64,000 bases of DNA, from IMG/VR virus record IMGVR_UViG_3300025030_000051, positions 32,001 to 96,000 of that record. One strand, 5' to 3'. The notes beneath the pieces were generated by a model that saw only the letters and a program-made list of their open reading frames with translations, had not been told where the DNA came from and ran no database searches. Below are positions 23,243-46,071 of this stretch, piece by piece. A program made the translations under genes and the position numbers. The stretch's first letter is position 1. Each line of letters begins with the position of its first letter. The DNA is from a virus.

Positions 23243-23893
23243 TTATCTCACTATTTTTGAATACATTTCATTCTGTTTTATCTGTTTCTCAAGACTTTTT
23301 TCATGATATAAAGCAAATTCTAATTTGAATGGTAAATTAGTTTCAGTTTCATGACCTAATATTATTTCATGTACTGAGCCGTACCAACATATTCTTTTAG
23401 TATTTTTAAAAATTCTGCCTTGTTTGTCTGGCCAATTATTTACTAAATCATTATAACCATCTAATTTTGTCATTCTCCACCCCCATTTTTTAATCCATTC
23501 ACTTGTAATTCCCTTGACAATATTTGTTCTTGGAATCCAGAATAGTTCTATATCTTTATTTGCTTCTAATATTGTCTTTAAATTTTCTAATAAGTAAGAT
23601 GATGGAATTTCGTCACAATCTATTTGAAAAATCCAATCTTTTGTACATTTATTCTTGCCAAAATTTTTAAATGAAGCAAAATCATTATTAAGAGAATAGT
23701 TATAATATAACAATTTTTTTGTATTAAGTAAACCATATTTATATACTTCATCATCTTTTATTTTATCAGACTCTATATCTTGAAGCACAATTATTTCATC
23801 TTCTTCATCTTTTTTAGACAATAGATAAGAAATTAATTTCTTAATTTCTTGTAGTTCATCATGCACTGTAACTAAAAAACTAACTGTCACCAT
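23243..23893 (-). CDS. Glycosyltransferase family 2
   Basis: DFASFKN..WIFQIDCDE (DxD)..PDKQGRIF..VHE. Confidence 0.88.
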   Translation of the reverse strand: MVTVSFLVTVHDELQEIKKLISYLLSKKDEEDEIIVLQDIESDKIKDDEVYKYGLLNTKKLLYYNYSLNNDFASFKNFGKNKCTKDWIFQIDCDEIPSSYLLENLKTILEANKDIELFWIPRTNIVKGITSEWIKKWGWRMTKLDGYNDLVNNWPDKQGRIFKNTKRICWYGSVHEIILGHETETNLPFKLEFALYHEKSLEKQIKQNEMYSKIVR

Positions 23894-25774: not shown

Positions 25775-26002
25775 TTATCCATGGAGTATCTCTTTATATC
25801 GTTCAAATTGAGATTTAAACAACTCATCTGTATATAATAATTGTTCTCCGTCTTCATCTATTACTATCCAATCGTTTTTATTTGCTTTTACTTCAGTCAG
25901 AGTTTTACCGCCTTCTGTAAGTAAGATAACCTTTCTATCAGAAATAACTTGATTGGCTATTACTAGATTATTACTTAATTTTTTTTTATATTTTTCGTTC
26001 AT
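25775..26002 (-). CDS. Hypothetical protein
   Basis: DWIVIDEDGE..FKSQFE; overlaps the GT4 stop codon. Confidence 0.55.
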   Translation of the reverse strand: MNEKYKKKLSNNLVIANQVISDRKVILLTEGGKTLTEVKANKNDWIVIDEDGEQLLYTDELFKSQFERYKEILHG

Positions 26003-27666: not shown

Positions 27667-29145
27667 TCATATATGTATCAACTCATATCTTTCTCTCGGT
27701 TTAAATTCTTCAAAGCACCTTTCCATATCCTGAATAAATCTTCTGCACATTTCAGATGCCTCCATACCTACTTCTTTTTTGAGCATAAATTCCCTTCCCA
27801 ATAAACCGTATTCCTTTCTCTTTTCATATCCTAAATTATACAGATATAATAGTCCTTCAGCTGCATCTTCCCATTTTGCCCTATCGTCAAAAATATATGG
27901 AGTTGGTGGTGAACCAACTAAACCCCTTGCTGCTGGGAATAATGGAAAAGCCCACTTACCACATTTTTTGAATCTACCATCATGATTACTACCCCATTTC
28001 TTGTCAAACTTAATTGGATTCCCTTCATCATCTACAAATCCCATCTGATCTTGAAGTCCACCAGTAACTGTTGCTAAAATAGGAGTTCCACTCATTAATG
28101 ATTCCGCTGTTGCTAGACCAAACCCTTCAGCACTTGCTAAGTTTATCGTAACATCAGAAATGTTATATAAATAGTTCAATTGAAACGATGGTAATCTTGC
28201 ATCATAATAAATAATATCATAATCCTTACACAATTCATTACCGACCTCTGGTAAATCTGTTCCGTTAGGATCAACTAATTGAGTATGCATTATCAACACG
28301 CATTTTTTTGCATTTTCTTTTGATAATTGATCACAAAACAATTTAAATGCCAAAATTACATCACCTGGAGATTTTCTTTTAATATTTCTATTATTATATA
28401 AAATTATAAAATTATAATCTTTATCACCAAAAATATCTTTCCTATATTTAATCATCCCTTCGTAATCATTCTTTAATTCCTTAACTCCATTGTTATCAAA
28501 TTCACGAACAATTCCTTGCTCTAATTCTGTAATTGGAAAATGGTTTTTTGAATTAATACCGTGTGGGATATAAGTAATTATTCTTTTGTCTGAACCTAAA
28601 ACATTATTAACAATATTTTCAGTCTGTTTACTGATACACATTAATAGATCACATCCCTGATAATAGGAACGATTATAAGTTGGATTGGGAACGTTATCCC
28701 AAACTGTATAAAAAAACAATGGTATTTTTTGTCTTATTTCGTGTTCCATATTAAACATCCAAATAAACTGTCGCGGATCTGTATACATCATTACTGCATC
28801 AATATTTAATTCTTCAATTAACGAACGAATTAAATCTGGATCTCCATAACCATCATTTGGTTGAATGACAACCTTTGCATCTGTTATTCCTAATGTAGCA
28901 TTTACATCTTGAGAAACATCTATACGTTTACCTTTATCTGGATGATTTATGGCAGCGCCAATTTGAAAAAAATTAAACCTATGAGCTGTACCCATTACAA
29001 TTTCTTTTGATACTACACCTACACCTGATGATAATCTTAGCTATAGGTCATCTGATAATAGAAGAATATTTTTACGATCTTTTTGTTGAACGTATTCATA
29101 TTCATTTATTATCAAACGACCTATAGTACCTCCATTCTCTATCAT
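27667..29145 (-). CDS. Glycosyltransferase family 4; true start at 29145 with an in-frame TAG at codon 35 (29041-29043), candidate recoding site
   Basis: GGAG RBS, then MIENGGTIGRLIINEYEYVQQKDRKNILLLSDDL*LRLSSGVGVVSKEIVM, in frame with track ORF 27667-28995 (RNIKRK, EGFGLATAES, TGGLQDQM). Confidence 0.85.
29041..29126 (-). promoter_or_regulatory. 86-nt mRNA stem-loop ending exactly on the in-frame UAG
   Basis: Arms CUAUAGGUCGUUUGAUAAUA... and ...UAUUAUCAGAUGACCUAUAG; 31 of 36 positions paired (29 WC, 2 G-U), 14-nt loop. Confidence 0.85.
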
Positions 29146-31969: not shown

Positions 31970-32182
31970 TTAAATATCTTCTTCTTTATAAATTACAAGT
32001 TCGTTCCCATATAAAATTGTAGGAATAGAAGATAATATTTTTTCATTAAGTGTCGGATGTAATTTATCAATATAATCTTTTAATCCTTCCATAGAATTTA
32101 TAGCCTCTAATTCTTTTATAAGTTGCATTTTATTTAATACTTTATTTTTAATAATTAAATCTAAATCTTTCATTTTGCCCAC
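31970..32182 (-). CDS. Hypothetical protein
   Basis: MGKMKDL start; coupled ORF. Confidence 0.5.
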   Translation of the reverse strand: MGKMKDLDLIIKNKVLNKMQLIKELEAINSMEGLKDYIDKLHPTLNEKILSSIPTILYGNELVIYKEEDI

Positions 32183-32562
32183 TTTCCTTTTAATACAATC
32201 AAAGCTATTTTACCGTAAACAGAAATATCAGTAAAAGAATCTTCTACAGATTCGTTTTTTGGAGCCTCTTTTTTCAATATTAAATTAATCAACCTGCTCA
32301 TTTTATCGTTCATCCTTGTAATCAATCCTGTCATTGCTAATTTCAAGTCCTGTTCTGATTCTAAAGCTGTATTCATTGCAATGTTAGTTGGGCCATAATC
32401 ATACTGTTTCTTTAAAAAAGTTATATATTGCTGTGCGCACAATTCCTTAAATTTTTCTGTCATTTCTGGATATTTTTCTTCCATTTCTTTTATCAATTCA
32501 AAAGCTGAGTGATCTATATTCTGTAATTCTATAGAAGGCTCTTGTTTTTTATCTGAATTCAT
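32170..32562 (-). CDS. Nucleotide modification-associated domain 1 (DUF1599/Nmad1)
   Basis: KKQYDYG..RMNDKMSRL..ESVEDSFTDISVY. Confidence 0.85.
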   Translation of the reverse strand: MNSDKKQEPSIELQNIDHSAFELIKEMEEKYPEMTEKFKELCAQQYITFLKKQYDYGPTNIAMNTALESEQDLKLAMTGLITRMNDKMSRLINLILKKEAPKNESVEDSFTDISVYGKIALIVLKGKWAK

Positions 32563-32862
32563 CTATTTCCTTATTTTTAAGTTTTTAAAAGTTTCATTAA
32601 TTCTTAAATTATTTTCTATAGTTTGTTTTAAAGTATTTAATTCATTTGGTATGCATCTAAATCTAAACTCCCATAATACTTCTTTATTTGTTTCTTTATT
32701 GTAGTTAAAACTTGTGAATGTCATATTAAAATATTTGAATCTTTCATTTCTTATAATAGAAACTTCATCTAAAATATCAATAGAGACTTTGTTAATCAAA
32801 AAATTATTAATTTCGTTAATAATTGCACGATTAAAAAAACCTAAAAGAAATATTTGGTTCAT
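32563..32862 (-). CDS. Hypothetical protein
   Basis: ORF. Confidence 0.5.
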   Translation of the reverse strand: MNQIFLLGFFNRAIINEINNFLINKVSIDILDEVSIIRNERFKYFNMTFTSFNYNKETNKEVLWEFRFRCIPNELNTLKQTIENNLRINETFKNLKIRK

Positions 32863-33945
32863 TTAATTTAATATTGTCCCATCAATAACTATTTGCTTGC
32901 ATGATGAGCTATATTTAAATAATTCATAATACTTTATTAGATCTTCCTTTTTGGTAATTCCCCATAAAATAAAAGACTTTCTCTCTAAATCAACTTTAAT
33001 GTGGTATACAAAATCACATTCAATATTATTAAATATAAATTTTTTAAATTCATCAAAATCTTCTTCTGAAATTTTAGATTTTTCTTTTAAATATTTTTCC
33101 CATTTATTATAATCTTTAGAATATTTATCAAATCCCGGATATATAAAAAATGAGTACATCTCATAAGATTTTACTTGTAATTTTTCTCCATTTGGAGTAA
33201 TTGAATCAATTTTTCCATAATAATCTTGATAAGCTGATGCCCTTTTTGAATTAGTGTAATTCCTAACTAATAGTTCAGCAATTCTAGATTTTAACAATAT
33301 ATTATAATCAACTTTATTATTTTTAATCAAACTAGATTTCGTATCATTTTCAATTTCTAATATTGCATCATCAATTAGTTTTTTATCAAATTCACCAGTT
33401 TTTGGCATAGTTCTTATTTTTTTACCTACAATTTTATCCATTGTATTTAATACTTCAAGCATATCTTTATCTAAATTTTTATTTAAATCTTCATGTAACT
33501 TTTCAAACTTAATATTATTATTTTTAATAAAAGTCTCTATTGTTTCGCCCATAATAAATTTATCATAATCATCTTTATAAATTATTCTTATTATACCCGC
33601 TTGTAAAATATTTTTAAGACAATTTTGACAGGGTTTCATTGTTGAATATAAAGTTGCACCATTTACATTAATATAATTTTTTGCAGCAAAATCAATCACG
33701 TTTAGTTCACCGTGTATTTCATTAACTGAACTCCATTTATGATGTTCTTCTCTATTTAAATTACGACTATCAAATTTTTCATTACAATGTAACGTATTCG
33801 ATAACGTCCCATTAAATCCTGTAGATATTATTCTTCCACTGTCAACTATTACACAACCAACGTTGTATAAAGCACAAGTAGACAATTTAGAAAATTCTTC
33901 TGCTATATTCATAAATAATTTATCATATGTTTGCTGTGTTGGCAT
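32863..33945 (-). CDS. dCMP deaminase fused to a C-terminal domain of unknown function
   Basis: VGCVIV..STGFNG; HGELN; PCQNC Zn motifs in the first ~150 aa; ~200 aa extra. Confidence 0.88.
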   Translation of the reverse strand: MPTQQTYDKLFMNIAEEFSKLSTCALYNVGCVIVDSGRIISTGFNGTLSNTLHCNEKFDSRNLNREEHHKWSSVNEIHGELNVIDFAAKNYINVNGATLYSTMKPCQNCLKNILQAGIIRIIYKDDYDKFIMGETIETFIKNNNIKFEKLHEDLNKNLDKDMLEVLNTMDKIVGKKIRTMPKTGEFDKKLIDDAILEIENDTKSSLIKNNKVDYNILLKSRIAELLVRNYTNSKRASAYQDYYGKIDSITPNGEKLQVKSYEMYSFFIYPGFDKYSKDYNKWEKYLKEKSKISEEDFDEFKKFIFNNIECDFVYHIKVDLERKSFILWGITKKEDLIKYYELFKYSSSCKQIVIDGTILN

Positions 33946-33954
33946 TTTTATTTT

Positions 33955-34147
33955 CTATACATTTAATTCTTCGTCTATCAGTTTTTCCAGCATATCATCA
34001 TAAGTGAAAAAAATATCATGAGGTCCGGCCCCGTGTAAATTAAATATTAATTGACAAAGCCTAATATCACATTGTTTTTCATATAATTTTAAAAGTTTTT
34101 CAATTAAACGTTTTTTTATCTTCTGGTTTTCTATTTATGTATTTCAT
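33955..34147 (-). pseudogene. Frameshifted duplicate of 29294-29494
   Basis: Near-identical DNA; A7 instead of A6 after GAT gives an early TGA. Confidence 0.8.
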
Positions 34148-34839
34148 CTTATGTTATTGTCTATTTCATATTTAGATTTTGGAATTTTTATTTTTAACTG
34201 TTTTTCCAATTCTGTTACATTAGTACAGCTTTCGTTAAAAGTAGAATAATTCGTACCAGATTTTTGTCTATTACAAGAAGAAAACAGACACCCGAAAAGA
34301 TTAGACAAATAATCTGCAGAACTATAATCACAATACTCTAATTTATCACATCCAGGTAAAAATTCTTCAGCTTCTTTTATTCCTTCTTTTATCATCATAT
34401 CTCTAAGTAACCAGTGCACCCCAGTGATAAATTCTTCTTCACAGAATTTTAGTCTTCTTGACATTTGACCTCTTAGTGAAGTCAAATCTTGCTTCACCCA
34501 ATATGAACAATTTCTTGACATTAAATTATATGTTGTTTGAATTTTAATTTCATCATTTCTAATTTTTTCTAATTTTTCTAATGTTTGAAATGTTTTATCT
34601 CTAAATTCTTCATTGTCATTCAATAAATTATAAACGTGTGTATAAACAATATACTCAGGGCTTTTTGAAACTTTATAATTAGAAAATTTTACACCAATTC
34701 TAGCTCTTGAATGTTGATCCCAAGAGCATATAGGAATATTAGAAACTGAATATAGTATTGTTGGTGCATTCCATTCGTGGATATCAACAATTAAATTTTC
34801 AACGCCCTTCATTATTTTAATATTATTTTTTACTATCAT
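34144..34839 (-). CDS. Divergent ThyX-fold protein
   Basis: DQHSRARIG (where ThyX has HQxxRHR); LRGQMSRRLKFCEE; Cys-rich C-terminus. Confidence 0.6.
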   Translation of the reverse strand: MIVKNNIKIMKGVENLIVDIHEWNAPTILYSVSNIPICSWDQHSRARIGVKFSNYKVSKSPEYIVYTHVYNLLNDNEEFRDKTFQTLEKLEKIRNDEIKIQTTYNLMSRNCSYWVKQDLTSLRGQMSRRLKFCEEEFITGVHWLLRDMMIKEGIKEAEEFLPGCDKLEYCDYSSADYLSNLFGCLFSSCNRQKSGTNYSTFNESCTNVTELEKQLKIKIPKSKYEIDNNIR

Positions 34840-35643
34840 TTAGTTTTCCTTAAAATAATTTTTGTCAATATTTTCTAATTCATCGTATTTTAATTTTGAA
34901 ATTCTAAAAAGTATGTCTTTTTTATTCATATAAACAGAATAAGAAGCATATAAAGCTATTAAAGGAAATTTATTATGTATATGTGCTACAATATATTTAT
35001 ATAATTCTCTCAAACTATTTGAGTGATCATTGTCTTCAAACTTCATATTAGATAATGACAATAAATTTTGTCCAAAAAAATAAGAATGTGAATAATTTTG
35101 TGGTAAAAATGATCTTGCACTTTGCCAACTTCCCTTACCTTTGTTGAGTATAAATTCATATAAATCTTTTAACTCATTAAATGTATTTTTTTCATATTCT
35201 GAAATTTCTTTGTGATTTTGAAATACAAAATCAGCATCTCTTTTATCATTATCTCTACAGCCTATTGACATAAAGGATGCAAATGGAGCATTTAGTGTAT
35301 GAAAATCAAATAACCATCGAGGAACACCTTTTACTCTAAAAATAAAATTGACCATTTCTCTTGCCTGTGGCAAGGTGTTGTTTGTCAAAACTGCTTTTAC
35401 CACTTCCAGTTTTGATTCAGGATTTGTTGATACCCATTTGTTTTTATATTCATTATTTCCCCAAGTTGCAGTACTTGTTAAAAACATTGCCTTATAAGGA
35501 TTTTTATTATGATCGACCAATTCAATTTCTAAAGAATCTTGTAGACTTAAAAATTTATTTTGTCTATTTGGATTTTCAGAAGGATGAGTTCCTGTTGATT
35601 TTCTTAAATCTTCTATTTTATTTATTTTTTCTTTTTCTGGCAT
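34840..35643 (-). CDS. Divergent ThyX-fold protein
   Basis: EMVNFIFRVKGVPRWLFD; SWQSARSFLPQ..GQNLLSL; no RHR motif. Confidence 0.65.
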   Translation of the reverse strand: MPEKEKINKIEDLRKSTGTHPSENPNRQNKFLSLQDSLEIELVDHNKNPYKAMFLTSTATWGNNEYKNKWVSTNPESKLEVVKAVLTNNTLPQAREMVNFIFRVKGVPRWLFDFHTLNAPFASFMSIGCRDNDKRDADFVFQNHKEISEYEKNTFNELKDLYEFILNKGKGSWQSARSFLPQNYSHSYFFGQNLLSLSNMKFEDNDHSNSLRELYKYIVAHIHNKFPLIALYASYSVYMNKKDILFRISKLKYDELENIDKNYFKEN

Positions 35644-36203
35644 GGTAAATCTTTATGTTGTTTTCTTTTAAAAATTTAGATATTAAATAATAAGACAATA
35701 ATGTTTTATATTGTATTTCTTTTATTGTAAATTTTTCTATTAAATATAAATTTATTATAATTTTTCCTATTTCTATTGGCATCAAAAATTTTAAGGCTTC
35801 ACTAATTTTTTTAGCTTTTTCTTTTGATCTTGACTCATTTTTATTTTAGATTCAATTTTATGTTTTTTACCAAGCATTCCCTTGCCTTTGGCTATTTTCT
35901 TTATAATATTTTCTCTGTCAGGATGGTTACTAATAACATCACCACCAAATGCTGTTTTAGAAATATTATACCAATATTTCTATCATAAGCTTTTAATTCT
36001 TTAATCCAATAAGTTTCTCTCTCATTAGCATTTTCTTTAGAGCATTCTTCAATAACTTCTTTTTTAAAATTTTCAATACCATATTTTTTAATAGCTCTTT
36101 TTATAAGCTTTCCAGAACCTAAATAATAATTACGGTTTTTAGAATCTTGACCAATGTAAATTTTATTATTAATCAAATTAATTGTTTTATAAATAATACC
36201 CAT
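35620..36203 (-). pseudogene. GIY-YIG homing endonuclease with NUMOD3, two frameshifts (3' end approximate)
   Basis: GIIYK..IYIGQ..YLGSG..ERETYWI; continues in another frame as YNISKTAFGGD..GKKHKIESKIKMS, with a second shift near 35810. Confidence 0.8.
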
Positions 36204-36211
36204 TTTCTTTC

Positions 36212-36313
36212 TTAATTAATAACCAAAATAACCGCGTCATAACTTTTTTCAACATTTTTAAACGGAAGAGTTCCCATTGCTTCTCTTAAGTTATCTATTT
36301 CATTTTTATTCAT
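36212..36313 (-). pseudogene. 33-aa ORF resembling the N-terminus of the ThyX-fold gene at 34840-35643
   Basis: EIDNLREAMGTLP versus KIEDLRKSTGTHP. Confidence 0.5.
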
Positions 36314-36320
36314 TATATTC

Positions 36321-39300
36321 CTAATTTATTTTTTGAATTTCATAATTTTTCATTTTTGTAAAACCATACTCGTTTTTATATACTACTATTACAATAAAAT
36401 CTCCTGCTTCTATTTGAATTATATCTTTAGAATCAAATGTAGTTATATAAATTTGTTCATATTCATCTTCAATAATAATTCTATAATACTCTCTTCCTGT
36501 TTTTTTAGATTTTTTACTCTCAATTTCTGTAATTATTCCACAAGTAATAAATGAACCATTTACAGAATTCTTTAAATCAGTGGGACTTTTAAAATCAGCT
36601 ATTTCAAGTCCCTCAAAAAATGAATTTTTTAATATATTAAATTTTTTATTAAAAGGATGAACTGAAAAATAAAATTCAAAATATTTTTTTTCAAATTGTA
36701 ATTTTTCTTTTTCATTCCAGTCTTGAATATCTTTATTTTCTTCTAATAATGCATCAATTTTAGTTTTAATATTACTAGATTTTATTTTTTTTACTTCATT
36801 TATAATAAATTCTAGTAACTTTGAATTACTATATATATTTTCAAAAAATTGTAATCTACAAAGAGGTTCATAACTTCTTTTAGAAATTTTATTTTCATTA
36901 ATTAATTTACAAATTTCATATATATTGTTTGGATTAAAACTATTTATACTTTCTATATCTTTGGATGAAATTCCTTTTACTATATTAAGACCAAAAGTTA
37001 TAATTTTATTGTCATAATCAACAGCAAAGTTATTAGAAGTATATCCACACTTAAAATTACTTATAGTAACACCTTGTTCTTTTGCTTGTTTCATAAACCA
37101 ACTTAACTCTTTTTTCTCACATTTATTAAATAGTGAAGAAAAATATTCTAAGGGGTAATGAACCTTTAAATACATAGCAATATAAGCATTTATAGAATAT
37201 GCTAGCGAATGAGACTTAACAAAAGAATATTGCGAATATTTAATTAATGTATTAAAAAGTTCATTAGCGTTTTTTTCACTTATTCCATTTAATATAGCAG
37301 ATTTTTTAAATTTAGAAATTTTTTCATTAAATTCAGTTGTATAATCTTTTTTAGAATCTTGTTTTGCCAAAGTTTTTAATAATTTTCTTATACTATCAGA
37401 TTCTGTTAAAGTAAAGTTACCTAATTTTTGTAAAATAAGCATTATCTGTTCTTGAAAAATTATTAATCCATAAGTACTGATAAGATTTTCCCAAATAATG
37501 GGATGTATTTTATTATATTTTTCTTTTGCCTTTTCAGTATTATTTTTATTATAAAAGTATTCATCAACAATACCTGCACTTATAGGTCCTGGTCTCCATA
37601 AAGCATTTAAACTTGTTAAATCTTCTATATTTTCCGGTTGCATTTTTATCATCAAATTTATCATTGAATCAGATCCAAATTGAAATATATCTCTAGTATT
37701 TCCTTTTTTAAATTCATCATATACTTTTGCATCATTAAAGTCAGAAGTTAATATTTCAGTTTCCATATGTTTCGTATTATGCTTTTTTTCAATAAGATTA
37801 AAAGTATTATTTATAACAGAAGCAGTTGTAAGTCCCAAAATATCAAGTTTCATATATCCTAATTCAGCAATTCCACGTTCATCAACAGAATCTTGAATAC
37901 CTGTTATAATTTCACCCCCTATTATCTGTAAGGGTAAATCAGAATCAACTAATTTTTTATCTGAAATAATAATACCGCTTGCATGTTTTCCAAGCTGTCT
38001 TGCTAAACCTTCAAATTTACTACCTATTTTAACAAATAATTCATAATTATCATCTATAAATTTTACCGTTTTATAATCTTTTAACTTCTCAAGAATTTTT
38101 CTTGCATTTTTTATTTCTTTTTCAATAGTAGAATTAATTATATTATCATTAAAAATTTTTGTTAGTTTATTAGTAGCATCAAAATTTAATTCAAAAATTC
38201 TACTTAAATCTTTTACTATTGTTTTAGAAGCAAATCTACTAAAATTACCCACGTGACAAACTTTGTTAACACCGTATTTATCTTTTAAATAACCTTCAAT
38301 TTGTTTTTGATGTTCAGAATCAAAATCAATGTCTATATCAGGAGGATCTTTTCTGGCACTATTAGCAAATCTTTCAAAAATTAAATTATATTTTAAAGGA
38401 TCTATTTTTGTTAAATCTGTTAACCATAAACATACACTACTGGGCGCTGAACCCCTACCAGCACCAGTAAATCCTTCAGTTTTTTCAACAAAGTTTTTAA
38501 TAATATCTTCAATAATTAAAAAATAGTCATTAAAACCTTTTTCTTTAAATAAAGAAAACTCATATTTTGCTTGATTTAAATATTTTTCATGTAAATCATA
38601 TTTTATTAAACCATTTTTAATTTTATTAATATAACCTTGTTTTATTTTTTCTAAAAAAAGTTCATCAGCTTCATTTTTAGTAGAACAAAATTTAGGATAA
38701 TTGTTTTTATACAATTCAATATCAAAATTTTCAACTTTATCAGCTATTTCATTAGTATTTTTTAATGATTCAAACAAAATATCTTGTAATTTAACAGGTT
38801 CTTTAATTATTAAATTATTAATTTCTTCTTCAGTTTTAAAATATAGTTCTCTAGCTTCATAAAACCAATCGTCTAAGGTCATCGATTTAATTGTTTTCTT
38901 TTGCTTAATACAATATAGTAAATATTGAATATAATAATCACTTTTGTCTAAATAATGAACGTCTAAACCAAAAACTGGTTTTATATTTAATTCTTTACAA
39001 AATTCAAGATTAACTAAATTAACTTTTCTTTGTATTTCTATACTGTTTAGTTGAAATTCTATATAAAAATTATCTTTAAATTTATTTTTATATTTCTTAT
39101 ATAATTCTCTTACTTCATTTATTTTACCTAAAACTATTTTTTTATTAAAAATACTTCCTAAACAAGCTGTAGTAATAATATTATTGTCATCTAAAAATTC
39201 AAAAACCATGTCTTGACTTAATAATGGCTTTCTGTAAAAATTAAAAAACCCTCTATTAGAAAGATGAATACAATTTTGTAGTCCTTTATAATTTTTTGCT

Positions 39301-39611
39301 AAAATAATTAAATGAGAGTTTTTTTCATTTTTTTCATCTCCAATATCTTCAGCAGATTTTTTATTAAGTTCAAGAAATCTTTCTTTGTCTTGATAATACA
39401 AATCATTAATATAAATCTCACAGCCCATTATAGGTTTTATTTTATTTTCTTTACATGATTTATAAAACTTTAAAAAAGACATCATATTACCATGCTCAGT
39501 TAAAGAAATAGCTTCACATCCAATTTTTTTAGCTTTTTCAACTATATCATCTATTCTAGCTACTGCATCACCTAAAGAAAATGTACTATGAACGTGAATT
39601 GGTGTGTACAT
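36321..39611 (-). CDS. dnaE: DNA polymerase III alpha subunit (family C)
   Basis: PHP domain HVHSTFSLGD, TEHG; GRGSA; FERF..PDIDIDFD; KLDILGL; FVKSHSLAY..YLKVHYP. Confidence 0.96.
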   Translation of the reverse strand: MYTPIHVHSTFSLGDAVARIDDIVEKAKKIGCEAISLTEHGNMMSFLKFYKSCKENKIKPIMGCEIYINDLYYQDKERFLELNKKSAEDIGDEKNEKNSHLIILAKNYKGLQNCIHLSNRGFFNFYRKPLLSQDMVFEFLDDNNIITTACLGSIFNKKIVLGKINEVRELYKKYKNKFKDNFYIEFQLNSIEIQRKVNLVNLEFCKELNIKPVFGLDVHYLDKSDYYIQYLLYCIKQKKTIKSMTLDDWFYEARELYFKTEEEINNLIIKEPVKLQDILFESLKNTNEIADKVENFDIELYKNNYPKFCSTKNEADELFLEKIKQGYINKIKNGLIKYDLHEKYLNQAKYEFSLFKEKGFNDYFLIIEDIIKNFVEKTEGFTGAGRGSAPSSVCLWLTDLTKIDPLKYNLIFERFANSARKDPPDIDIDFDSEHQKQIEGYLKDKYGVNKVCHVGNFSRFASKTIVKDLSRIFELNFDATNKLTKIFNDNIINSTIEKEIKNARKILEKLKDYKTVKFIDDNYELFVKIGSKFEGLARQLGKHASGIIISDKKLVDSDLPLQIIGGEIITGIQDSVDERGIAELGYMKLDILGLTTASVINNTFNLIEKKHNTKHMETEILTSDFNDAKVYDEFKKGNTRDIFQFGSDSMINLMIKMQPENIEDLTSLNALWRPGPISAGIVDEYFYNKNNTEKAKEKYNKIHPIIWENLISTYGLIIFQEQIMLILQKLGNFTLTESDSIRKLLKTLAKQDSKKDYTTEFNEKISKFKKSAILNGISEKNANELFNTLIKYSQYSFVKSHSLAYSINAYIAMYLKVHYPLEYFSSLFNKCEKKELSWFMKQAKEQGVTISNFKCGYTSNNFAVDYDNKIITFGLNIVKGISSKDIESINSFNPNNIYEICKLINENKISKRSYEPLCRLQFFENIYSNSKLLEFIINEVKKIKSSNIKTKIDALLEENKDIQDWNEKEKLQFEKKYFEFYFSVHPFNKKFNILKNSFFEGLEIADFKSPTDLKNSVNGSFITCGIITEIESKKSKKTGREYYRIIIEDEYEQIYITTFDSKDIIQIEAGDFIVIVVYKNEYGFTKMKNYEIQKIN

Positions 39612-40182
39612 TTATAATCTCATGTAATAAATTCATAATTTCTTTTTTATAATCTTTTATCTTACTTTTATTATATGAATAATAATAACTAGGATGCTTT
39701 AATTTAAAAATTTTATTAAAATAATTTGTATTTTCTAATATTATTTTTAAATTATTATATACTGAATTTCCAAGAGCTACTATATACTCTGGTTTTACAA
39801 TTTCTAACTCATTATAAAAAATATAACTACAATCAATAACATTTTTTTTACTAATTTTATTATTAATAGTAGAACATTTAACTAAATTAGTTATATAAAA
39901 GTATTCTAAAACTTTAAATTCTCTAAAAATATCCAAAAAGTTTTGACTTGAACTTTTTTGTTTTTCGTGTCCTAAAAATATAAAATAGTTTTCTATAATT
40001 CTTTTTGAAGAAGGATTTTGTCCTACAAGCATTATTTTACTATTTTTTCCAAAAGATGGTAAAAGTTTTCCTGGATCAAAAGCTTTTACAGAATTTACTT
40101 TAAGTTCATGTAGTTCACACTTTTGGCAACAAATAATTTTTTTAGCTAAATCTTTATCTATCCTATCTAAATTTAAATTCAC
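39586..40182 (-). CDS. Uracil-DNA glycosylase superfamily (family 4-like)
   Basis: CQKCEL; VGQNP; ITNLVKC; IVALG; HPSY. Confidence 0.88.
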   Translation of the reverse strand: MNLNLDRIDKDLAKKIICCQKCELHELKVNSVKAFDPGKLLPSFGKNSKIMLVGQNPSSKRIIENYFIFLGHEKQKSSSQNFLDIFREFKVLEYFYITNLVKCSTINNKISKKNVIDCSYIFYNELEIVKPEYIVALGNSVYNNLKIILENTNYFNKIFKLKHPSYYYSYNKSKIKDYKKEIMNLLHEIINVHTNSRS

Positions 40183-40727
40183 AGCAATTTATGATAACTT
40201 ACAGTATTTATAAAAATAGTACCTAATTTTAAAATCTCAGTATTTCTACTTAATTTATTATAAACATATATGTAAATTTTAATTAAATTACATATATCAT
40301 TTTTAAATTTACTATCTATTTCGCTTCTTATAATAATATGCATATCAAGTAAATTTTTATTAACTATAAAACTAACCATAGAAATACAGGCAGCCATATT
40401 TTCATCAAAATAATCTTTTGGTCTAATAACTACTTTTCGAGTAAATATATCGTCTTTAGCGTATCTATTGTATAATTTATTAAATATATCACATATTTCA
40501 TCAAATTCAAGCGCATCATAAGAATGCGGTGATATTATTTTATTTTCTATTATATAATTAAAAATATTATTTTCTAATTCTTCAATAGTACATTTTAAAT
40601 ATATTTTATAATTTAAATTATAAATTTCTTTATACTTCTTATTATCTCTAATAACAAAATTATTATTACTTTTTAATTTTTTATTCAATTCTAAATATTT
40701 TGTTTCTATTTGATAATCTACTTTCAT
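40179..40727 (-). CDS. Divergent thymidylate-synthase-like protein
   Basis: TRKVVI..ACISMVSF..LDMHIIIRSE..ND..SYH roughly follows the ThyA PC..Q/RSxD/SxH layout. Confidence 0.5.
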   Translation of the reverse strand: MKVDYQIETKYLELNKKLKSNNNFVIRDNKKYKEIYNLNYKIYLKCTIEELENNIFNYIIENKIISPHSYDALEFDEICDIFNKLYNRYAKDDIFTRKVVIRPKDYFDENMAACISMVSFIVNKNLLDMHIIIRSEIDSKFKNDICNLIKIYIYVYNKLSRNTEILKLGTIFINTVSYHKLL

Positions 40728-41157
40728 TTTGAGTATTTTTTATAATTTTTTTTGCTATTATTTTTTGATTTAAATTTGAAGTATCTATTTCGATATAATT
40801 ATTAAAATTAAGTATTTTTTTATTAAAAGCTTTATTTATAAAATTATTATATTCTCTTAAATGAACTTTAATATTCATATATTTTTCATTAGTATTAACG
40901 TGTCTTTGTTTTAATATAGATTCATCAGCATAAAAATAAATAAAATATGAATTATAATAATTTAAAAAAACTTTTAATAAATTCCAAAAATATTTATTAT
41001 TAACATTCCTTTTAAATATTTTAGCATAAACAAGAACAGAAAGAGGTGTTCTATCTGTCATATAATATGAACCACTACTTTGTTTAACTATTTCTTTAAA
41101 AGTTGAAGTTTTACCTGAACGATCAACTCCCTCTAATAATAAAAATACATTATTCAT
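40681..41157 (-). CDS. dNMP/thymidylate kinase-like protein
   Basis: LEGVDRSGKTS; DRTPLS..VYA; IDTS. Confidence 0.85.
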   Translation of the reverse strand: MNNVFLLLEGVDRSGKTSTFKEIVKQSSGSYYMTDRTPLSVLVYAKIFKRNVNNKYFWNLLKVFLNYYNSYFIYFYADESILKQRHVNTNEKYMNIKVHLREYNNFINKAFNKKILNFNNYIEIDTSNLNQKIIAKKIIKNTQNESRLSNRNKIFRIE

Positions 41158-41236
41158 TTACAAAAATTGTTTAATTTTTTCAAAAGAAATGATATTTTTA
41201 TAAAATTAATACACTTACTTATCATAGATTTTTTAC

Positions 41237-42355
41237 TCAATAATTTGATTTTTCATAATTAAAAATATCTTTGAATTTCTCTTTATAAAAATTAAGATCT
41301 GTAGCCATTTTAATATAATCTTTATTTTCTTTAATTTCTTTAAGTGCTACTTCATAATTAATTGATTTAATTTTATCAGGAACTTCATTCAATTTTACAA
41401 CATATTTTCTAAATACTTTTAATAATTCTGGATAATGTTGTAATCCTCTTTCTAAATTAGCTTCATTGTGAATTAATGAAATTGTATCAGATGCTAATGC
41501 TTCAAAGAATCGTATATTAGAAAAATGATTAGAATCATAAGATGGAATAATCATTGTAAACCTTGATTTTCCAACTTCTGTATTATACTTATAAATGTTT
41601 ACAAGTGTATTAATATCTGCAAATTTATCCTTTAAGTAAATATTATTTGAAAGTCTTAAATCTTCTAAATTTTGCTTGAGTTTAATAATCTGTGATGTAA
41701 TATATGTTCTTTTTTTTGTTAGTATTGTACAGCCAAAAGTAAAATCAATATTTTTAAAAGATGGATTAATATTATTATAAAAAAATCCGTATTCTACAAA
41801 TGGCACCCATCTCATATTTTCTGGTGGGGGACAATCAAAAAAGTACCATCTATTTTTAATAAAATCAGGCTCTTGTGGATCTGTAATCATTTGAAATGAT
41901 TCAATACCTTTTACTTCTTGAATATAATATGCAAATAATGCTCTATTAAGATAACTAAAATTTATATTAAAATTTGTTTTATAAAAATCACTATGTAATG
42001 AATTTTCATAATCTTGTTTAATAGGATCATTAATGCCCCTTCTATAATTTTTCATAACTCCTAAATAAACTATTAGATGCTTATCAATTTTATATTTACT
42101 TAAAATTTTATCTATAAATGCATATGATTTTTTCCAAGATTTTTCTGTAAAATAATCATCTTGCGCATCAATAATAGTAATATTAGGAATATCATATAAT
42201 GCAAAAAATTTCTTATCTATAGTTTTTCTTTCCTTGTATGGATTAATAAAATAATAATGATTTTTAGTATCTAAAAAAAGAAATTTAAAATAGTTATTAT
42301 ATTTAGCACTTTCATATCTAGATATCATTTTTAAAAAACTCAATAAAATATTCAT
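41237..42355 (-). CDS. GT-B glycosyltransferase resembling T4 DNA beta-glucosyltransferase
   Basis: ITDP; SRFTMIIPSYD..FSNIRFFEALASDTISLI aligns by eye with the BGT C-terminal TLRVWETMASDAVMLI region (recalled). Confidence 0.6.
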   Translation of the reverse strand: MNILLSFLKMISRYESAKYNNYFKFLFLDTKNHYYFINPYKERKTIDKKFFALYDIPNITIIDAQDDYFTEKSWKKSYAFIDKILSKYKIDKHLIVYLGVMKNYRRGINDPIKQDYENSLHSDFYKTNFNINFSYLNRALFAYYIQEVKGIESFQMITDPQEPDFIKNRWYFFDCPPPENMRWVPFVEYGFFYNNINPSFKNIDFTFGCTILTKKRTYITSQIIKLKQNLEDLRLSNNIYLKDKFADINTLVNIYKYNTEVGKSRFTMIIPSYDSNHFSNIRFFEALASDTISLIHNEANLERGLQHYPELLKVFRKYVVKLNEVPDKIKSINYEVALKEIKENKDYIKMATDLNFYKEKFKDIFNYEKSNY

Positions 42356-42387
42356 ATTTGTTTAATTTACTTTATTGATTAACTTTT

Positions 42388-43383
42388 TCATAAACTTTTA
42401 TAAATATTTATTATTGAATTATAAGTTTTTAAAATACCAAGTCTGTCGTTATAAGCTTCATTTGGAAGTTTATAATCAAAAAATTTATAAAAATTTTCAG
42501 ATATACCATTGTGATTTTTTAAATAATCTAAATCTTTATTTATTTTTATATGTTTATTTATAAGTTCGTCAAACGTAATACCTGTTAATTCACAAATAAT
42601 ATTTAAATAATGCTTAAAAGGCATCGGTTTATTTCTACTAATTATAAAATCTTTTCCAGATAAGTTATCAAAATTATTTAATATAAAATAAAACATTTTG
42701 GCAAAATATTCACTTCTCATATAGTCTTTAAAAATTTCAGGATCTAAAAATACTGAGAGTTGTTTATTAGTTTTGTTTATTTTATTTAAATAAATTCTTT
42801 CTAATATTTTTCTTATCATAGATGAATTATCATATGGAGCATCACCATAAATAAATACAGGCTTTATTGTTAAAAATTTTTGTTTTTTAAGCGATTGTTT
42901 TATAGCAAGTTCAGCACTATATTTTGTTAAACCATATATAGTTTTTGGATTTATTGTAGCAGTTTCATTAAATTTTCCATTATTTTTCATATATTCATCT
43001 GGATCAAATATAGCTGTTGTTGAAAAATTTATAATTTTACATTTTTTTTTAAGAGCTATATCTATTAAATACTGTGTTCCTAAAACGTTAGACTTAACAG
43101 CATCATAAAAATATTTTTCACACTTATCAGTATTTACATAAGCAGCTGTATGAATTATTATAGAATTTTCATCTAAACTGTTTTGTATATAATTTAAATT
43201 TTTTTTACTGGTAATATCAATTTCAGAATCTTTAATTTGCTTGTTTTTTAAATAATGAAAAACATTAGTATAAGTCGCATACAACTTATTATATATAATT
43301 TCATATTTATTGTAATCTAAAATATCTATAATAGATTTAGCTAACATACCTGTATGACCAGTTATAAACAATTTAGTTTTCAT
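42388..43383 (-). CDS. NAD-dependent nucleotide-sugar epimerase/reductase (RmlD-like)
   Basis: TGHTGMLA; HTAAYVNTD; FSTTAIF; YGLTK. Confidence 0.85.
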   Translation of the reverse strand: MKTKLFITGHTGMLAKSIIDILDYNKYEIIYNKLYATYTNVFHYLKNKQIKDSEIDITSKKNLNYIQNSLDENSIIIHTAAYVNTDKCEKYFYDAVKSNVLGTQYLIDIALKKKCKIINFSTTAIFDPDEYMKNNGKFNETATINPKTIYGLTKYSAELAIKQSLKKQKFLTIKPVFIYGDAPYDNSSMIRKILERIYLNKINKTNKQLSVFLDPEIFKDYMRSEYFAKMFYFILNNFDNLSGKDFIISRNKPMPFKHYLNIICELTGITFDELINKHIKINKDLDYLKNHNGISENFYKFFDYKLPNEAYNDRLGILKTYNSIINIYKSL

Positions 43384-44347
43384 TTAATAATTTTATAAAG
43401 TTTTTATGTTCCTTAAATGAAATTATCCTATTATCTAACTTTTTTATTATTTCTTCATAAGACAGATCACATATAAATTTATTATATTTAAAAAATACAG
43501 TAAATCCATTTTTAGCTAAAATATTACAATTATCTATATCATCATCAAACACAAATTTTTTGTCATTATTATTAAAATTTTTAATAATATATTTTTCTTT
43601 TTGTTCCTCCCAAATTATTGCATCATATTTAAATTTATTATTTTTAAGCCATTCTAGTGTATCTGAATAAATTCTAGATATTTTTTTATATGGTCTTGCT
43701 GTTATCAAAATAATAAAATAATTTCTTTTACTTAATTCATCTAACAACTCTTTAGAATCATCTATAATAGCCATTTTTCTTTTAATGCCAGATAAGCGAT
43801 ACAATGTTTTTAATTCATATAATTGTAATTTAGGAATTATTTTTTCTAATTCTTCTAAATTTTTAATATTTTTATTTAATTTTTCATTAACAAAATCTAT
43901 AAAACATTTTGGCCAATTTGCAATAACCCCATCAATATCAATAAATGCAATATTTTTATCTTTTTTATTTTTTATATTATTTAACATAATATTTTGATCA
44001 AACTTATCGTTTACAACATTAGATTTATCTATAAATTTATTATAAATTTGTTCATAAGTAAAACCATTTATTATAAGAGTTTCTAATAAATATTTTAATG
44101 TATCTATTCCTTCTTCTAATAAATTATCTTTAACGTCATCACCGTCTTTGTCGACGTGTGATTTCCAATCAACCTCATCTAATAATTCACTTGCTTCTTT
44201 TATCGTGGCTAAAATAAATTCTTTATTCCACTTTATTGTTAATTCTTTATCTTCAATTATTTTACTATAATCAATATTATATTTTACTTTAAAAAATTTT
44301 TCAGTAAATTTTTTTTGAATATTATAAATTTCTTCTAATCTATCCAT
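43373..44347 (-). CDS. MazG/dimeric dUTPase-dCTPase domain fused to a HAD nucleotidase
   Basis: EASELLDEVDWKSH..EEGID; FIDIDGV..ITARP..FDDD. Confidence 0.85.
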   Translation of the reverse strand: MDRLEEIYNIQKKFTEKFFKVKYNIDYSKIIEDKELTIKWNKEFILATIKEASELLDEVDWKSHVDKDGDDVKDNLLEEGIDTLKYLLETLIINGFTYEQIYNKFIDKSNVVNDKFDQNIMLNNIKNKKDKNIAFIDIDGVIANWPKCFIDFVNEKLNKNIKNLEELEKIIPKLQLYELKTLYRLSGIKRKMAIIDDSKELLDELSKRNYFIILITARPYKKISRIYSDTLEWLKNNKFKYDAIIWEEQKEKYIIKNFNNNDKKFVFDDDIDNCNILAKNGFTVFFKYNKFICDLSYEEIIKKLDNRIISFKEHKNFIKLLNEN

Positions 44348-45247
44348 TTATTTTTCAAATCTTTCAATTATTTGTTCCATTTTTATTTTGTGTGACCATT
44401 GTGCATAACGACCAATATGAATTATATTATTTCCAGTTTTATTTATGTTATCATAAGAAAATTTAATTTGAGCAAATGGAAGTGTAATTTTATCTAAAAC
44501 CTTATATTCATCCATTAAAATATCTGTTTTTCCTTTCACTTCAAAAACCACATAATCTTCAAATAAATTACAACGATGCCATTGAGTAGAAGCTATTGAA
44601 TAGAAATATTCTAATTGTAAACTATTTTTTATGTTTTTTAAATAATTGTTATATTCACATTTAAAAAATGTTGTATTGAATGCTGTAAAATCATGATTAT
44701 TTATATTAATTTTGGATAATTTTTGAAACATATTTATAGGAAGAGTATTGATTAAAAAATCATATTTTTTTTCTTGTGATGATACTAAATATAAAATATT
44801 TTTCTCAATATCAATTTTTTTTACTTTATCTATAATAATTCTTTCAAAAACTAATTCTTCTAATCTTTTAAGAATTAAATTATAGTCAATATCAAAAACA
44901 GTAAGTTTATTTTTACCAGAAGATAGTACTGATGGGTGTATTTCATTCTTATTTAATTCTCTAGTTTTTAAAGCATATTTTTTCTTAAAATTACCATCAA
45001 TATAATCTTTTATTGAACTATCTTCGTACATATAACCAATTTTAACTTCTCTAATTTTTATGTCTTCTAATATAATTTTATTAAAAAAAGATTTTGTATG
45101 TTTATTTACTTCAAGTAAACGAGGTCCTAGTTGAAATTTATTAAGATTTTGCCATCCACCAATACGATCAGTAATGAGTTCATATTTTTTATTATAAAAT
45201 GCTGAAACTAATCCAGCAACACCCCCTCCAATAACAAATAATTTAAT
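44348..45247 (-). CDS. FAD-dependent oxidoreductase, UDP-galactopyranose mutase-like; probable ATT start
   Basis: Frame open upstream of the track ATG: GGAG-N6-ATT KLFVIGGGVAGL..IGG..GPRLL; C-terminal INTLP and IGRYAQW. Confidence 0.75.
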   Translation of the reverse strand: MKLFVIGGGVAGLVSAFYNKKYELITDRIGGWQNLNKFQLGPRLLEVNKHTKSFFNKIILEDIKIREVKIGYMYEDSSIKDYIDGNFKKKYALKTRELNKNEIHPSVLSSGKNKLTVFDIDYNLILKRLEELVFERIIIDKVKKIDIEKNILYLVSSQEKKYDFLINTLPINMFQKLSKININNHDFTAFNTTFFKCEYNNYLKNIKNSLQLEYFYSIASTQWHRCNLFEDYVVFEVKGKTDILMDEYKVLDKITLPFAQIKFSYDNINKTGNNIIHIGRYAQWSHKIKMEQIIERFEK

Positions 45248-45618: not shown

Positions 45619-46071
45619 TTATTTTGAAACTACTATGATTCTTTCATCTATTAAAATATTTTCTATAACTAATCTAACATCATTCCAGCTTAGTTTTCCG
45701 TTGCCGCATCCTGGTCTTGGAAAATATACCTTTGAAATATTTTTTGTATAATATGAATTATTTAAATACACTATTAACTGCCTTGCTGACCTTTCAATTA
45801 ATTTTATATCTGAATTTTCTGTCCATATATGCTTTGTTGGAAAAGTAAACATTCTGTATCTATCTAACATATATACATTGTTGCCAAAGTTTTTTAATAA
45901 GTGTCCTAATTCTTTTGGCAATAAAAAGAATTTTTCTTTGGCTTGAAGTGCGATTCCCCTACCCATTACTGCTTCTTTATTCTTCTTAACAAATCCATTA
46001 GTAGTAATACAGATATAAGATTCTTTGTCTGAATTATAGAGATCCCAGATATTAGCTTTTATTTCTTTCAT
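45619..46071 (-). CDS. Macro domain (ADP-ribose-binding) protein
   Basis: ITTNG..VMGRGIA..FPTK..PRPGCGNGKLSW. Confidence 0.85.
   Translation of the reverse strand: MKEIKANIWDLYNSDKESYICITTNGFVKKNKEAVMGRGIALQAKEKFFLLPKELGHLLKNFGNNVYMLDRYRMFTFPTKHIWTENSDIKLIERSARQLIVYLNNSYYTKNISKVYFPRPGCGNGKLSWNDVRLVIENILIDERIIVVSK

Follow-up and report, generated by a model that had tools for sequence, protein, structure and literature searches.

The window analysed here comprises 64,000 nucleotides (bases 32001-96000) of the 112,828-base IMG/VR virus record IMGVR_UViG_3300025030_000051, and between positions 32170 and 45247 it contains a cluster of nucleotide- and sugar-related genes surrounding a DnaE-type DNA polymerase. 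In our best reading, to which we give an about even chance, this region is a replication-linked module that replaces or decorates cytosine in the phage DNA, following a scheme similar to those of phages T4 and RB69. The module would centre on three proteins: a minimal thymidylate synthase fold (mini-ThyA), a thymidylate kinase-like (TMK-like) kinase and a candidate DNA glycosyltransferase (GT). This trio matches in composition the clusters of phages RB69, DLP3 and RL38J1 that have been studied experimentally, and we read the region as a probable cytosine-glycosylation system.

The record has an estimated completeness of 63% and is AT-rich (24% G+C). All sizeable open reading frames (ORFs) lie on the minus strand, so that transcription runs from high toward low coordinates. 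The contiguous same-strand genes listed in the preliminary description of this DNA are all present as minus-strand ORFs. They are given below in the sense of transcription; a 99-residue ORF lies between the last two entries.

44348..45247, minus strand: flavoprotein, 299 residues, with an ATT start and GxGxxG at residues 7-12
43373..44347, minus strand: fusion of a dUTPase/dCTPase-type (MazG-like) domain with an NT5C HAD domain, 324 residues (Pfam, PDB profile)
42388..43383, minus strand: extended short-chain dehydrogenase/reductase (SDR) of the nucleoside diphosphate (NDP)-sugar epimerase/reductase class, 331 residues (Pfam, PDB profile)
41237..42355, minus strand: GT-B glycosyltransferase, 372 residues, candidate DNA glycosyltransferase (predicted fold)
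40681..41157, minus strand: TMK-like P-loop (d)NMP kinase, 158 residues (Pfam, NCBIfam)
40179..40727, minus strand: mini-ThyA, 182 residues, C-terminally truncated ThyA fold (ESM Atlas model, profile)
39586..40182, minus strand: family-4-type uracil-DNA glycosylase (UDG)-fold protein, 198 residues (Pfam, NCBIfam)
36321..39611, minus strand: DnaE-type replicative polymerase, 1096 residues (Pfam, phrog_405)
35901..36203, minus strand: GIY-YIG homing-endonuclease-like ORF, 100 residues (Pfam)
34840..35643, minus strand: altered ThyX (ThyX267), 267 residues, without the RHR motif (Pfam Thy1)
34144..34839, minus strand: second, more divergent ThyX paralog, 231 residues, with an HSRAR-type motif (phmmer, alignment)
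32863..33945, minus strand: dCMP deaminase (residues 1-160) with a C-terminal extension of about 200 residues (Pfam, phrog_174)
32170..32562, minus strand: small protein, 130 residues, with weak DUF1599/Nmad1 likeness (Pfam E 0.003, phrog_1485)

Pfam, PHROGs and NCBIfam together back seven of these assignments, namely the deaminase, one ThyX, DnaE, the family-4-type UDG, the TMK-like kinase, the NDP-sugar SDR and the NT5C HAD domain. The region has no megablast match among 50,697 phage records, and a DnaE-based pattern search of IMG/VR returned no relatives.

Mini-ThyA is recognized by sensitive methods only. On its own, the sequence has no match in Pfam or the PDB and no tblastn match in cultured phages, and the Pfam PF00303 hidden Markov model (HMM) finds nothing in the 112-kb record. 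The ESM Atlas model of exactly this sequence has a predicted template modelling score (pTM) of 0.78 and superimposes on ThyA clusters with a template modelling score of 0.75 over 166 of the 182 residues; the matched clusters include viral kinase-ThyA and deaminase-ThyA fusions. Homologs are found at two syntenic loci, L013 (171 residues, E 2e-7) and L011 (188 residues). The profile built from the three sequences gives 49 matches in the PDB, with a best E of 0.028; nearly all are thymidylate synthases, and they align in the proper register. The ThyA-like protein of the preliminary description is thus borne out by both fold and profile. In this low-identity alignment, Cys114 falls at the position of C146, Arg134-Ser135 at 166-167 and Asp144 at 177. 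Moreover, the Arg-Ser pair is located exactly 20 residues past the Cys, the same spacing as in ThyA.

Four positions of the ThyA family are informative about the reaction. C146 is catalytic, N177D identifies enzymes acting on dCMP, an acidic residue at 143 accompanies hydroxymethyl or hydroxyl products, and D169N is characteristic of flavin-dependent 5-hydroxy-dCMP synthases (PMC13326640). At these positions the proteins compared here carry the following residues.

ThyA homologs of about 290 residues linked to UDP-galactopyranose mutase (UGM), and the enzyme of phage AB434P2: 143 Asp, 146 Cys, 169 Asp, 177 Asp; dCMP-hydroxymethylase-like
L011 and L013 mini-ThyA: 143 Asp/Glu, 146 Cys, 169 Asn, 177 Asp; hydroxylase signature
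Window mini-ThyA: 143 Met, 146 Cys, 169 Glu or gap, 177 Asp; neither class

The Asp at the N177 position predicts dCMP as the substrate of mini-ThyA. Cytosine is therefore its likely substrate base, with a hydroxymethyl or hydroxyl product, and of the two options left by the preliminary description, a uracil- or a cytosine-derived base, the active-site columns favor cytosine and speak against uracil. The 188- and 171-residue ThyA folds at L011:14769-15335 and L013:14909-15424 carry the full 5-hydroxy-dCMP synthase signature, with the motifs RSQN/RSMN. In the window protein, the loop following Arg-Ser is one residue shorter than in these relatives, so that position 169 is read as Glu or a gap; the Asn diagnostic of the flavin-dependent synthases of the RB69 gp48 type is absent. 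Likewise, the residue three positions before the Cys is Met, not the acidic residue found at L143 in T4-type dCMP hydroxymethylases (gp42, MilA), with some uncertainty in how the loop is placed. All three mini-ThyA proteins stop just past the conserved His and thus lack the C-terminal segment of ThyA. Judging from the difference between T4 gp42 and ThyA, the loss of this segment would make reductive methyl transfer unlikely. In L013, the mini-ThyA gene adjoins an S-adenosylmethionine (SAM) methyltransferase gene, with no GT in view, and the product there could be O-methylated.

The kinase gene overlaps the mini-ThyA gene with its 3' end by 47 nt. The protein matches Pfam Thymidylate_kin at 8e-6 (26.1 bits, slightly below the cut-off) and the NCBIfam dTMP kinase P-loop model at 1e-6, in agreement with the dNMP kinase assigned earlier.

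The third member of the trio belongs to a family with 357 relatives in an exhaustive HMMER search. Its structure was predicted from a 73-sequence alignment, and an earlier AF2 model from five close homologs (predicted local distance difference test score, pLDDT, 52) was set aside. The resulting model (pLDDT 95.1, pTM 0.91) shows the GT-B fold with two Rossmann domains, resembling the solved DNA glycosyltransferases. In a structural search against 48,161 chains that did not rely on Foldseek, O-GlcNAc transferase (15.9) ties with T4 BGT (15.8), and T4 AGT (14.6) and the HY126 enzyme (14.5) occupy ranks five and six. The predicted fold is thus as BGT-like as that of any GT-B enzyme, and the ranking alone does not set it apart from other GT-B enzymes. 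HY126 is listed among the phages with arabinosylated 5-hydroxycytosine (PMC13326640), and we infer that the solved HY126 glycosyltransferase (9iqz) is its DNA arabinosyltransferase; the PDB title reads just "phage HY126 glycosyltransferase". At the sequence level, the 372-residue protein does not belong to the phage DNA glycosyltransferase families (BGT GT63, AGT, HY126) and shows 13-15% identity to BGT. Its sole Pfam match at E<=10 is a weak one to Glyco_trans_1_2 (E 0.029); profiles of the GT give no PDB match by sequence, and a pattern search of IMG/VR with the single protein returned no relatives. Among the 73 aligned family members, 40 match Exostosin_GT47 and 18 match Glyco_trans_1_2. 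The BGT-like GT of the preliminary description is therefore retained as to its GT-B fold and its top structural neighbors, but not as a sequence member of the BGT family. We consider it a candidate DNA glycosyltransferase of an uncharacterized GT47/exostosin-like family.

The gene neighborhoods of this family bear on a role in DNA modification. The family search yielded 7 viral and 24 metagenome loci, which were reduced to 25 distinct loci by clustering the GTs at 90% identity. Neighbors within 7-10 kb were called over every ORF with local HMMs built from the sequences gathered here. A TMK-like kinase is found nearby in 14 of the 25 loci, a ThyA homolog in 11, a bona fide UGM in eight and DnaE in five; at least one of these four accompanies the GT in 16. 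Pfam confirms the neighbors as ThyA (1e-22) and as UGMs (GLF, 4e-51 and 5e-70), and UGM matches occur in only 90 of the 50,697 phage records. The recurring orders are kinase-ThyA-UGM-385-residue protein-GT, ThyA-kinase-UGM-GT, and GT directly followed by UGM. The closest relative of the window GT with an informative context, L025 (37% identity), has the order deaminase, UDG, kinase, GT, UGM and then DnaE; the window has the flavoprotein and the SDR instead of the UGM. Among cultured phages, tblastn finds the GT family only in the Agathobaculum phages AB434P2 and AB434P3 and in one Pseudoalteromonas phage. In AB434P2, a ThyA-like gene annotated as deoxyuridylate hydroxymethyltransferase is followed by the GT homolog and then by DnaE. 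A shared neighborhood with the 46%-identical GT homolog in L003 was considered and dropped, as the neighbors there are PAP2, endolysin and histidine kinase genes.

Within this family, a cluster composed of kinase, ThyA of about 290 residues, UGM, 385-residue protein and GT recurs in uncultured phages (L005:7400-14827, L006:6148-14035, L007 and L027-L035). The 385-residue protein shows a weak relationship to the GT, and the cluster is often followed by genes for a methyltransferase and a RimK-like ATP-grasp enzyme. The gene content of these clusters predicts that they produce galactofuranosylated 5-hydroxymethylcytosine, to which an amino acid may be added. They share with the window the GT family (25-32% identity), the kinase type and the Asp177 of ThyA. 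They differ from it in the longer ThyA with D169 (RSND) and L143D and in a GLF-family UGM, and they lack the orphan flavoprotein and the SDR.

From the folds, family links and gene neighborhoods observed here we infer the following scheme, including each of its chemical steps, the substrate, the sugar and the completeness of replacement. The dUTPase/dCTPase-like domain of the fusion protein and the dCMP deaminase would shape the pyrimidine pool. The conserved Cys of mini-ThyA would attack C6 of dCMP, and C5 would gain a hydroxymethyl or hydroxyl group. The TMK-like kinase encoded by the overlapping gene would phosphorylate the modified dNMP, a host NDP kinase would complete the triphosphate, and the phage DnaE would incorporate it. 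Once in DNA, the new hydroxyl would be glycosylated by the 372-residue GT-B enzyme, with an NDP-sugar as donor. Tailoring of this donor is probably the task of the SDR and the orphan flavoprotein, and it could lead to a hexofuranose or 6-deoxy-hexofuranose. No sugar nucleotidyltransferase is detected in the 112-kb record by the NTP_transferase HMM, and the starting material of the donor would therefore have to be host NDP-sugars. The earlier proposal of a pyrimidine modified as a nucleotide and glycosylated on the DNA thus remains the best reading, on account of the trio and the neighbors of the GT family, with its chemistry predicted.

RB69, DLP3 and the Rhizobium phage RL38J1 contain glycosylated 5-hydroxycytosine and encode an adjacent TMK-like kinase, GT and ThyA homolog; the sugars are furanoses on the C5 oxygen of cytosine, either arabinofuranose or, through a phage UGM in RL38J1, galactofuranose (Lee, Weigele, Peters et al., NAR 2026, PMC13326640). 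Like these phages, the window has a TMK-like kinase, a GT-B glycosyltransferase and a ThyA homolog side by side together with a dCTPase-type pyrophosphatase, and the L011 and L013 homologs carry both D169N and N177D. Unlike them, its ThyA-fold enzyme has only 182 residues, stops short of the C-terminal segment and shows Glu or a gap in place of Asn169, and its GT comes from the GT47/exostosin-like family, for which tblastn finds no homolog in Pootjesviridae or Straboviridae. In addition, its record lacks a UGM, an arabinose-5-phosphate isomerase and a sugar nucleotidyltransferase, and the module lies beside a DnaE-type polymerase. Compared with T4 (gp42/gp1/gp56/Cd/BGT), the GT shows low identity to BGT, the kinase resembles TMK rather than gp1, the dTMP synthase is of the ThyX type, and the pyrophosphatase forms a fusion with a HAD nucleotidase. 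The genes are also clustered, whereas those of T4 are scattered. Since furanosyl sugars on C5-oxygenated cytosine and a phage UGM are covered in PMC13326640, the kind of scheme proposed for the window is already known. As judged by sequence comparison, the departures from the known systems are the minimal ThyA fold, the uncharacterized GT47-like candidate DNA-GT family and the missing recognizable UGM.

The flavoprotein gene is longer than first listed. Upstream of the 227-residue ORF, its frame stays open across the GxGxxG motif as far as the ATT at 45247, and a GGGAG box precedes this codon at a distance of six bases. Fourteen homologs of 291-318 residues align from the first residue, with GxGxxG invariant at residues 7-12, and these full-length alignments confirm the ATT start given in the preliminary description. 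The public gene call P0166 (227 residues) starts 72 codons late at an internal ATG and thereby loses the FAD-binding motif. In the ESM Atlas, the protein matches viral clusters of about 300 residues, followed by amine-oxidase families. Judged by these matches, the flavoprotein is a phage-only family of the amine-oxidase/UGM-type superfamily. Its profile gives eukaryotic UGMs as top matches in the PDB (E ~0.09), and three of its features follow one another as they do in UGMs: the FAD motif, an invariant Arg in mid-protein, and GR-x-A-x-aromatic in the C-terminal part. The flavoprotein differs from UGMs in being about 70-80 residues shorter than bacterial UGMs and in adjoining a nucleotide-hydrolase fusion gene, not a GT gene. 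The UGM-like flavoprotein of the preliminary description is therefore confirmed in its FAD-binding motif, but not in a GLF match or in profile likeness beyond that motif. The flavoprotein has no tblastn match in the 50,697 phage records, and its sole remote relative found in cultured phages is gp68 of the Pbunavirus PB1.

The fusion protein downstream matches Pfam NT5C at 2.5e-7 and dUTPase_2 at 0.011, and the profile of its N-domain, which is of the all-alpha dUTPase type, has its best PDB matches in dimeric dUTPases (E 0.005); the dNTPase-HAD fusion was thus correctly described. NT5C-family enzymes prefer dUMP/dTMP. The SDR matches Pfam RmlD_sub_bind (1e-21) and Epimerase (2e-19), and its PDB profile matches CapD and RmlD at 4e-15, consistent with the NDP-sugar epimerase/reductase proposed earlier; its best NCBIfam model is rmlD, far below the cut-off. 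The Fcf1/Fcf2 pair makes dTDP-fucofuranose, and the pairing of the flavoprotein with the RmlD-like SDR resembles that of Fcf2 with Fcf1. UGM and the orphan flavoprotein occur together in none of the loci. This complementary distribution of the UGM and of the flavoprotein with the SDR suggests that the latter two stand in for the UGM of the sister clusters. The furanose sugar envisaged in the preliminary description draws indirect support from the true UGMs in related GT loci, but the window flavoprotein is not demonstrably a UGM.

A search with the flavoprotein family returned four IMG/VR loci, L010-L013. In the window and in all four loci, the HAD-fusion gene comes immediately after the flavoprotein gene. 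The kinase, UDG, SDR, DnaE and altered ThyX are present in L010-L013 wherever the contig extends far enough, with the SDR conserved in L010, L011 and L013 and the UDG conserved beside the kinase in L011, L013 and L025. L011, a 207-kb genome of 91% completeness, also has a GT-family gene in addition to mini-ThyA. A canonical ThyA (1e-82) or ThyX (1e-36) is found in L012 and L013, and the L012 contig ends before the DnaE region. In L013, the canonical ThyX lies elsewhere in the locus, and the altered ThyX, 64% identical to that of the window, lies by DnaE. The coexistence of the two in L013 suggests that the altered copy is not simply a dTMP synthase.

Parts of this cassette have remote counterparts in Pbunavirus. 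In PB1, hhalign relates the ThyX protein gp61 to the ThyX-like profile (92%) and gp68, a 333-residue GxGxxG protein, to the flavoprotein profile over 209 columns (55-57%, E 1e-4); both are encoded near the PB1 DnaE. The window resembles PB1 in having a ThyX and a GxGxxG flavoprotein, the latter of about 330 residues in PB1, near a DnaE-type polymerase. It differs from PB1 in the HAD fusion, SDR, mini-ThyA and GT, for which no counterparts are found there; hhalign also finds no PB1 counterpart of the kinase. In the Pbunaviruses F8 and 14-1, hypermodification affects about a quarter of the thymidines and occurs in a TG motif. The masses agree with a derivative of an erythrose/threose-alcohol or of an aldopentose, with no genes assigned to the modification (PMC12191111). 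The Pbunavirus link appears remote but real enough to sustain a reading with two pathways.

The two ThyX-fold proteins described earlier are not equally well supported. ThyX267 exceeds the curated Pfam Thy1 cut-off (34.9 bits vs 24.8, E 1.8e-8) and is the sole Thy1 match in the 112-kb record, whereas the 231-residue paralog has no Pfam match and is recognized only weakly, by a phmmer match at 8e-6 to the ThyX-like protein of L011. With the PF00303 and Thy1 HMMs, no thymidylate synthase other than this pair is detected in the record. ThyX267 has no tblastn match in cultured phages. Both ThyX267 and its L013 homolog lack Arg-His-Arg at the RHR...S...R site, and the 231-residue paralog keeps an HSRAR-type string. 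The tandem pair with complementary motif loss may form a hetero-oligomer.

The remaining enzymes of the module agree with the earlier assignments. The dCMP deaminase is identified by Pfam (7e-19) and phrog_174 (3e-46); its C-terminal extension was considered as a fused ThyA domain, and this idea was dropped since it matches neither ThyA nor the other local HMMs. DnaE contains the Pfam PHP, DNA_pol3_alpha and finger domains and matches phrog_405 at 3e-230. The UDG-like protein has a family-4-type domain (Pfam UDG 1e-18; NCBIfam type-4 UDG 1e-13, far below the equivalog cut-off), with four Cys at the positions expected for an Fe-S cluster. Motif A is GQNPS in this protein, against a consensus of GEAPG in family-4 UDGs. 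The protein may thus have altered or no glycosylase activity.

Farther along the window, about 29 kb of glycan-synthesis genes are located at positions 1-29000 on the minus strand; their acceptor could be DNA, virion proteins or the host surface. SAM methyltransferases are also found in this island, and two DNA methyltransferases are encoded in the window. The following genes of the island were assigned.

3-1430, minus strand: carbamoyltransferase
2897-3769, minus strand: GT10-like gene
7901-8854, minus strand: Glyco_trans_1_2 gene
10488-11669, minus strand: DegT aminotransferase
12343-13272, minus strand: GFO/IDH/MocA oxidoreductase
16816-17766, minus strand: NDP-sugar 4,6-dehydratase
18812-19618 and 23243-23893, minus strand: two GT2 genes
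25999-27336 and 27667-28995, minus strand: two GT4 genes

Several observations weigh against the cytosine-glycosylation reading. Mini-ThyA is very divergent, and a word search of 5.8 billion proteins returns only itself; its Met143 and Glu/gap169 fit neither the hydroxylase nor the classical hydroxymethylase signature cleanly. The structural match scores of the GT fall off smoothly through the GT-B enzymes, with O-GlcNAc transferase level with T4 BGT. The three closest GT clusters (L003/L004, L023 and L024; 42-48% identity) show none of the ThyA, kinase, UGM or DnaE neighbors. In addition, the glycan island has at least seven further GT-family genes, so that the acceptor of the GT might be something other than DNA. 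As for the sugar, the GLF (PF03275) HMM finds no match at E<=10 in the whole 112-kb record, and hhalign of the flavoprotein against phage UGMs gives a probability of 7% over only 29 N-terminal columns, which cover the FAD motif. Finally, in L013, whose contig is only 15% complete, the genes for the flavoprotein, HAD fusion and SDR are grouped without a visible GT.

The last of these points bears on whether the region encodes one pathway, as the preliminary description had supposed. This is doubtful, as L013 has the flavoprotein, HAD fusion, SDR and altered ThyX as a group with no GT in view, and parts of this group have remote counterparts in Pbunavirus. A reading with two pathways, which we regard as possible though less than probable, keeps mini-ThyA, the kinase and the GT for cytosine, while the ThyX pair, flavoprotein, HAD fusion and SDR would build a sugar-like thymidine substituent of the Pbunavirus type that needs no GT. 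It accounts for the constant placement of the flavoprotein gene directly before the HAD fusion, in the company of the SDR and a ThyX-like gene, and for an altered ThyX without RHR, which in L013 coexists with a canonical ThyX. The gp61 and gp68 matches near the PB1 DnaE, the sugar-like masses of the F8/14-1 thymidine modification in its TG motif (PMC12191111), and an NT5C-type dTMP/dUMP nucleotidase with a dUTPase-like domain, which would suit the exclusion of thymidine, point in the same direction. However, the PB1 link is remote, with empty tblastn searches for the flavoprotein and ThyX267 and no HAD fusion or SDR detected in PB1. Moreover, ThyX267 is the sole thymidylate synthase candidate in the record and, together with its 231-residue paralog, may simply make dTMP.

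The idea that the region serves nucleotide housekeeping, with the GT as part of a glycan arsenal directed at proteins of the capsid or tail or at the surface of the host and with the virion DNA merely methylated, appears improbable to us. Large phages with unmodified DNA commonly encode a dCMP deaminase, ThyX, kinase, dUTPase-like enzyme and UDG, the window does have the glycan genes (two GT4, two GT2, GT10-like, Glyco_trans_1_2 and others) and the two DNA methyltransferases, and the closest GT homologs sit amid lysis and signalling genes. Nevertheless, the repeated linkage of the GT family to ThyA, kinase, UGM and DnaE across the 25 loci is hard to explain for a surface-glycan enzyme, and a truncated second ThyA-fold gene overlapping a kinase gene has no housekeeping rationale. 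Replacement of thymine as in SPO1 is very improbable. In this case, 5-hydroxymethyl-dUMP would be the product of mini-ThyA and 5-hydroxymethyluracil (hmU) the acceptor of the GT, with dTTP/dUTP and dTMP degraded by the fusion protein. The match of the fusion N-domain to dUTPases and the substrate preference of the NT5C family fit this scheme, as do the annotation of the AB434P2 ThyA-like gene and the dUMP that the deaminase would supply. Position 177 is Asp and not Asn in the window, L011, L013, AB434P2 and all UGM-linked ThyA homologs, and for this reason hmU was rejected as the lead target base. In addition, replacing T in a 76% A+T genome while retaining a ThyX-type gene seems costly.

Returning to the cytosine-glycosylation reading, a further extension concerns the product and is speculative enough that we think it rather unlikely to hold in full. 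The flavoprotein family would be a new NDP-sugar pyranose-furanose mutase or the flavin partner of mini-ThyA, and with the SDR and the GT47-like DNA-GT would lead to a hexofuranosyl or 6-deoxy-hexofuranosyl ether of 5-hydroxy- or 5-hydroxymethyl-cytosine, an undescribed base. The 29-kb glycan island might add amination, methylation or carbamoylation.

Other genes within and beside the module are not assigned a role in it. The GIY-YIG ORF between DnaE and ThyX (Pfam 7e-5) stands outside the proposed pathway, and GIY-YIG genes are found at differing sites of the same replication module in L011 (9366-9998) and L013 (15467-16231 and 20386-20924). The 130-residue protein matches phrog_1485 (3e-16), and the Nmad1/DUF1599 identity given in the preliminary description is weak, its E of 0.003 being below the Pfam cut-off. 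Upstream of the flavoprotein, positions 45619-46071 on the minus strand encode a 150-residue macro-domain protein closest to the DarG DNA ADP-ribosyl glycohydrolase domain (NCBIfam 3e-15; phrog_335). This gene is conserved at the same place in L010, L012 and L013, and may serve as counter-defence against DarT-type DNA ADP-ribosylation.

DNA hypermodification determines whether restriction enzymes, CRISPR nucleases and sequencing chemistries act on phage DNA. The neighborhoods of the GT47-like candidate DNA-GT family predict galactofuranosylated cytosine derivatives in many uncultured phages, and this prediction is checkable because the cultured phages AB434P2 and AB434P3 carry the family. The ThyA folds of 171-188 residues, some with the 5-hydroxy-dCMP synthase signature, bear on the folate-to-flavin switch of the ThyA family. 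Moreover, the cassette of flavoprotein, HAD fusion, SDR and altered ThyX is widespread and may be connected with the modified thymidine seen in therapeutic Pbunaviruses.

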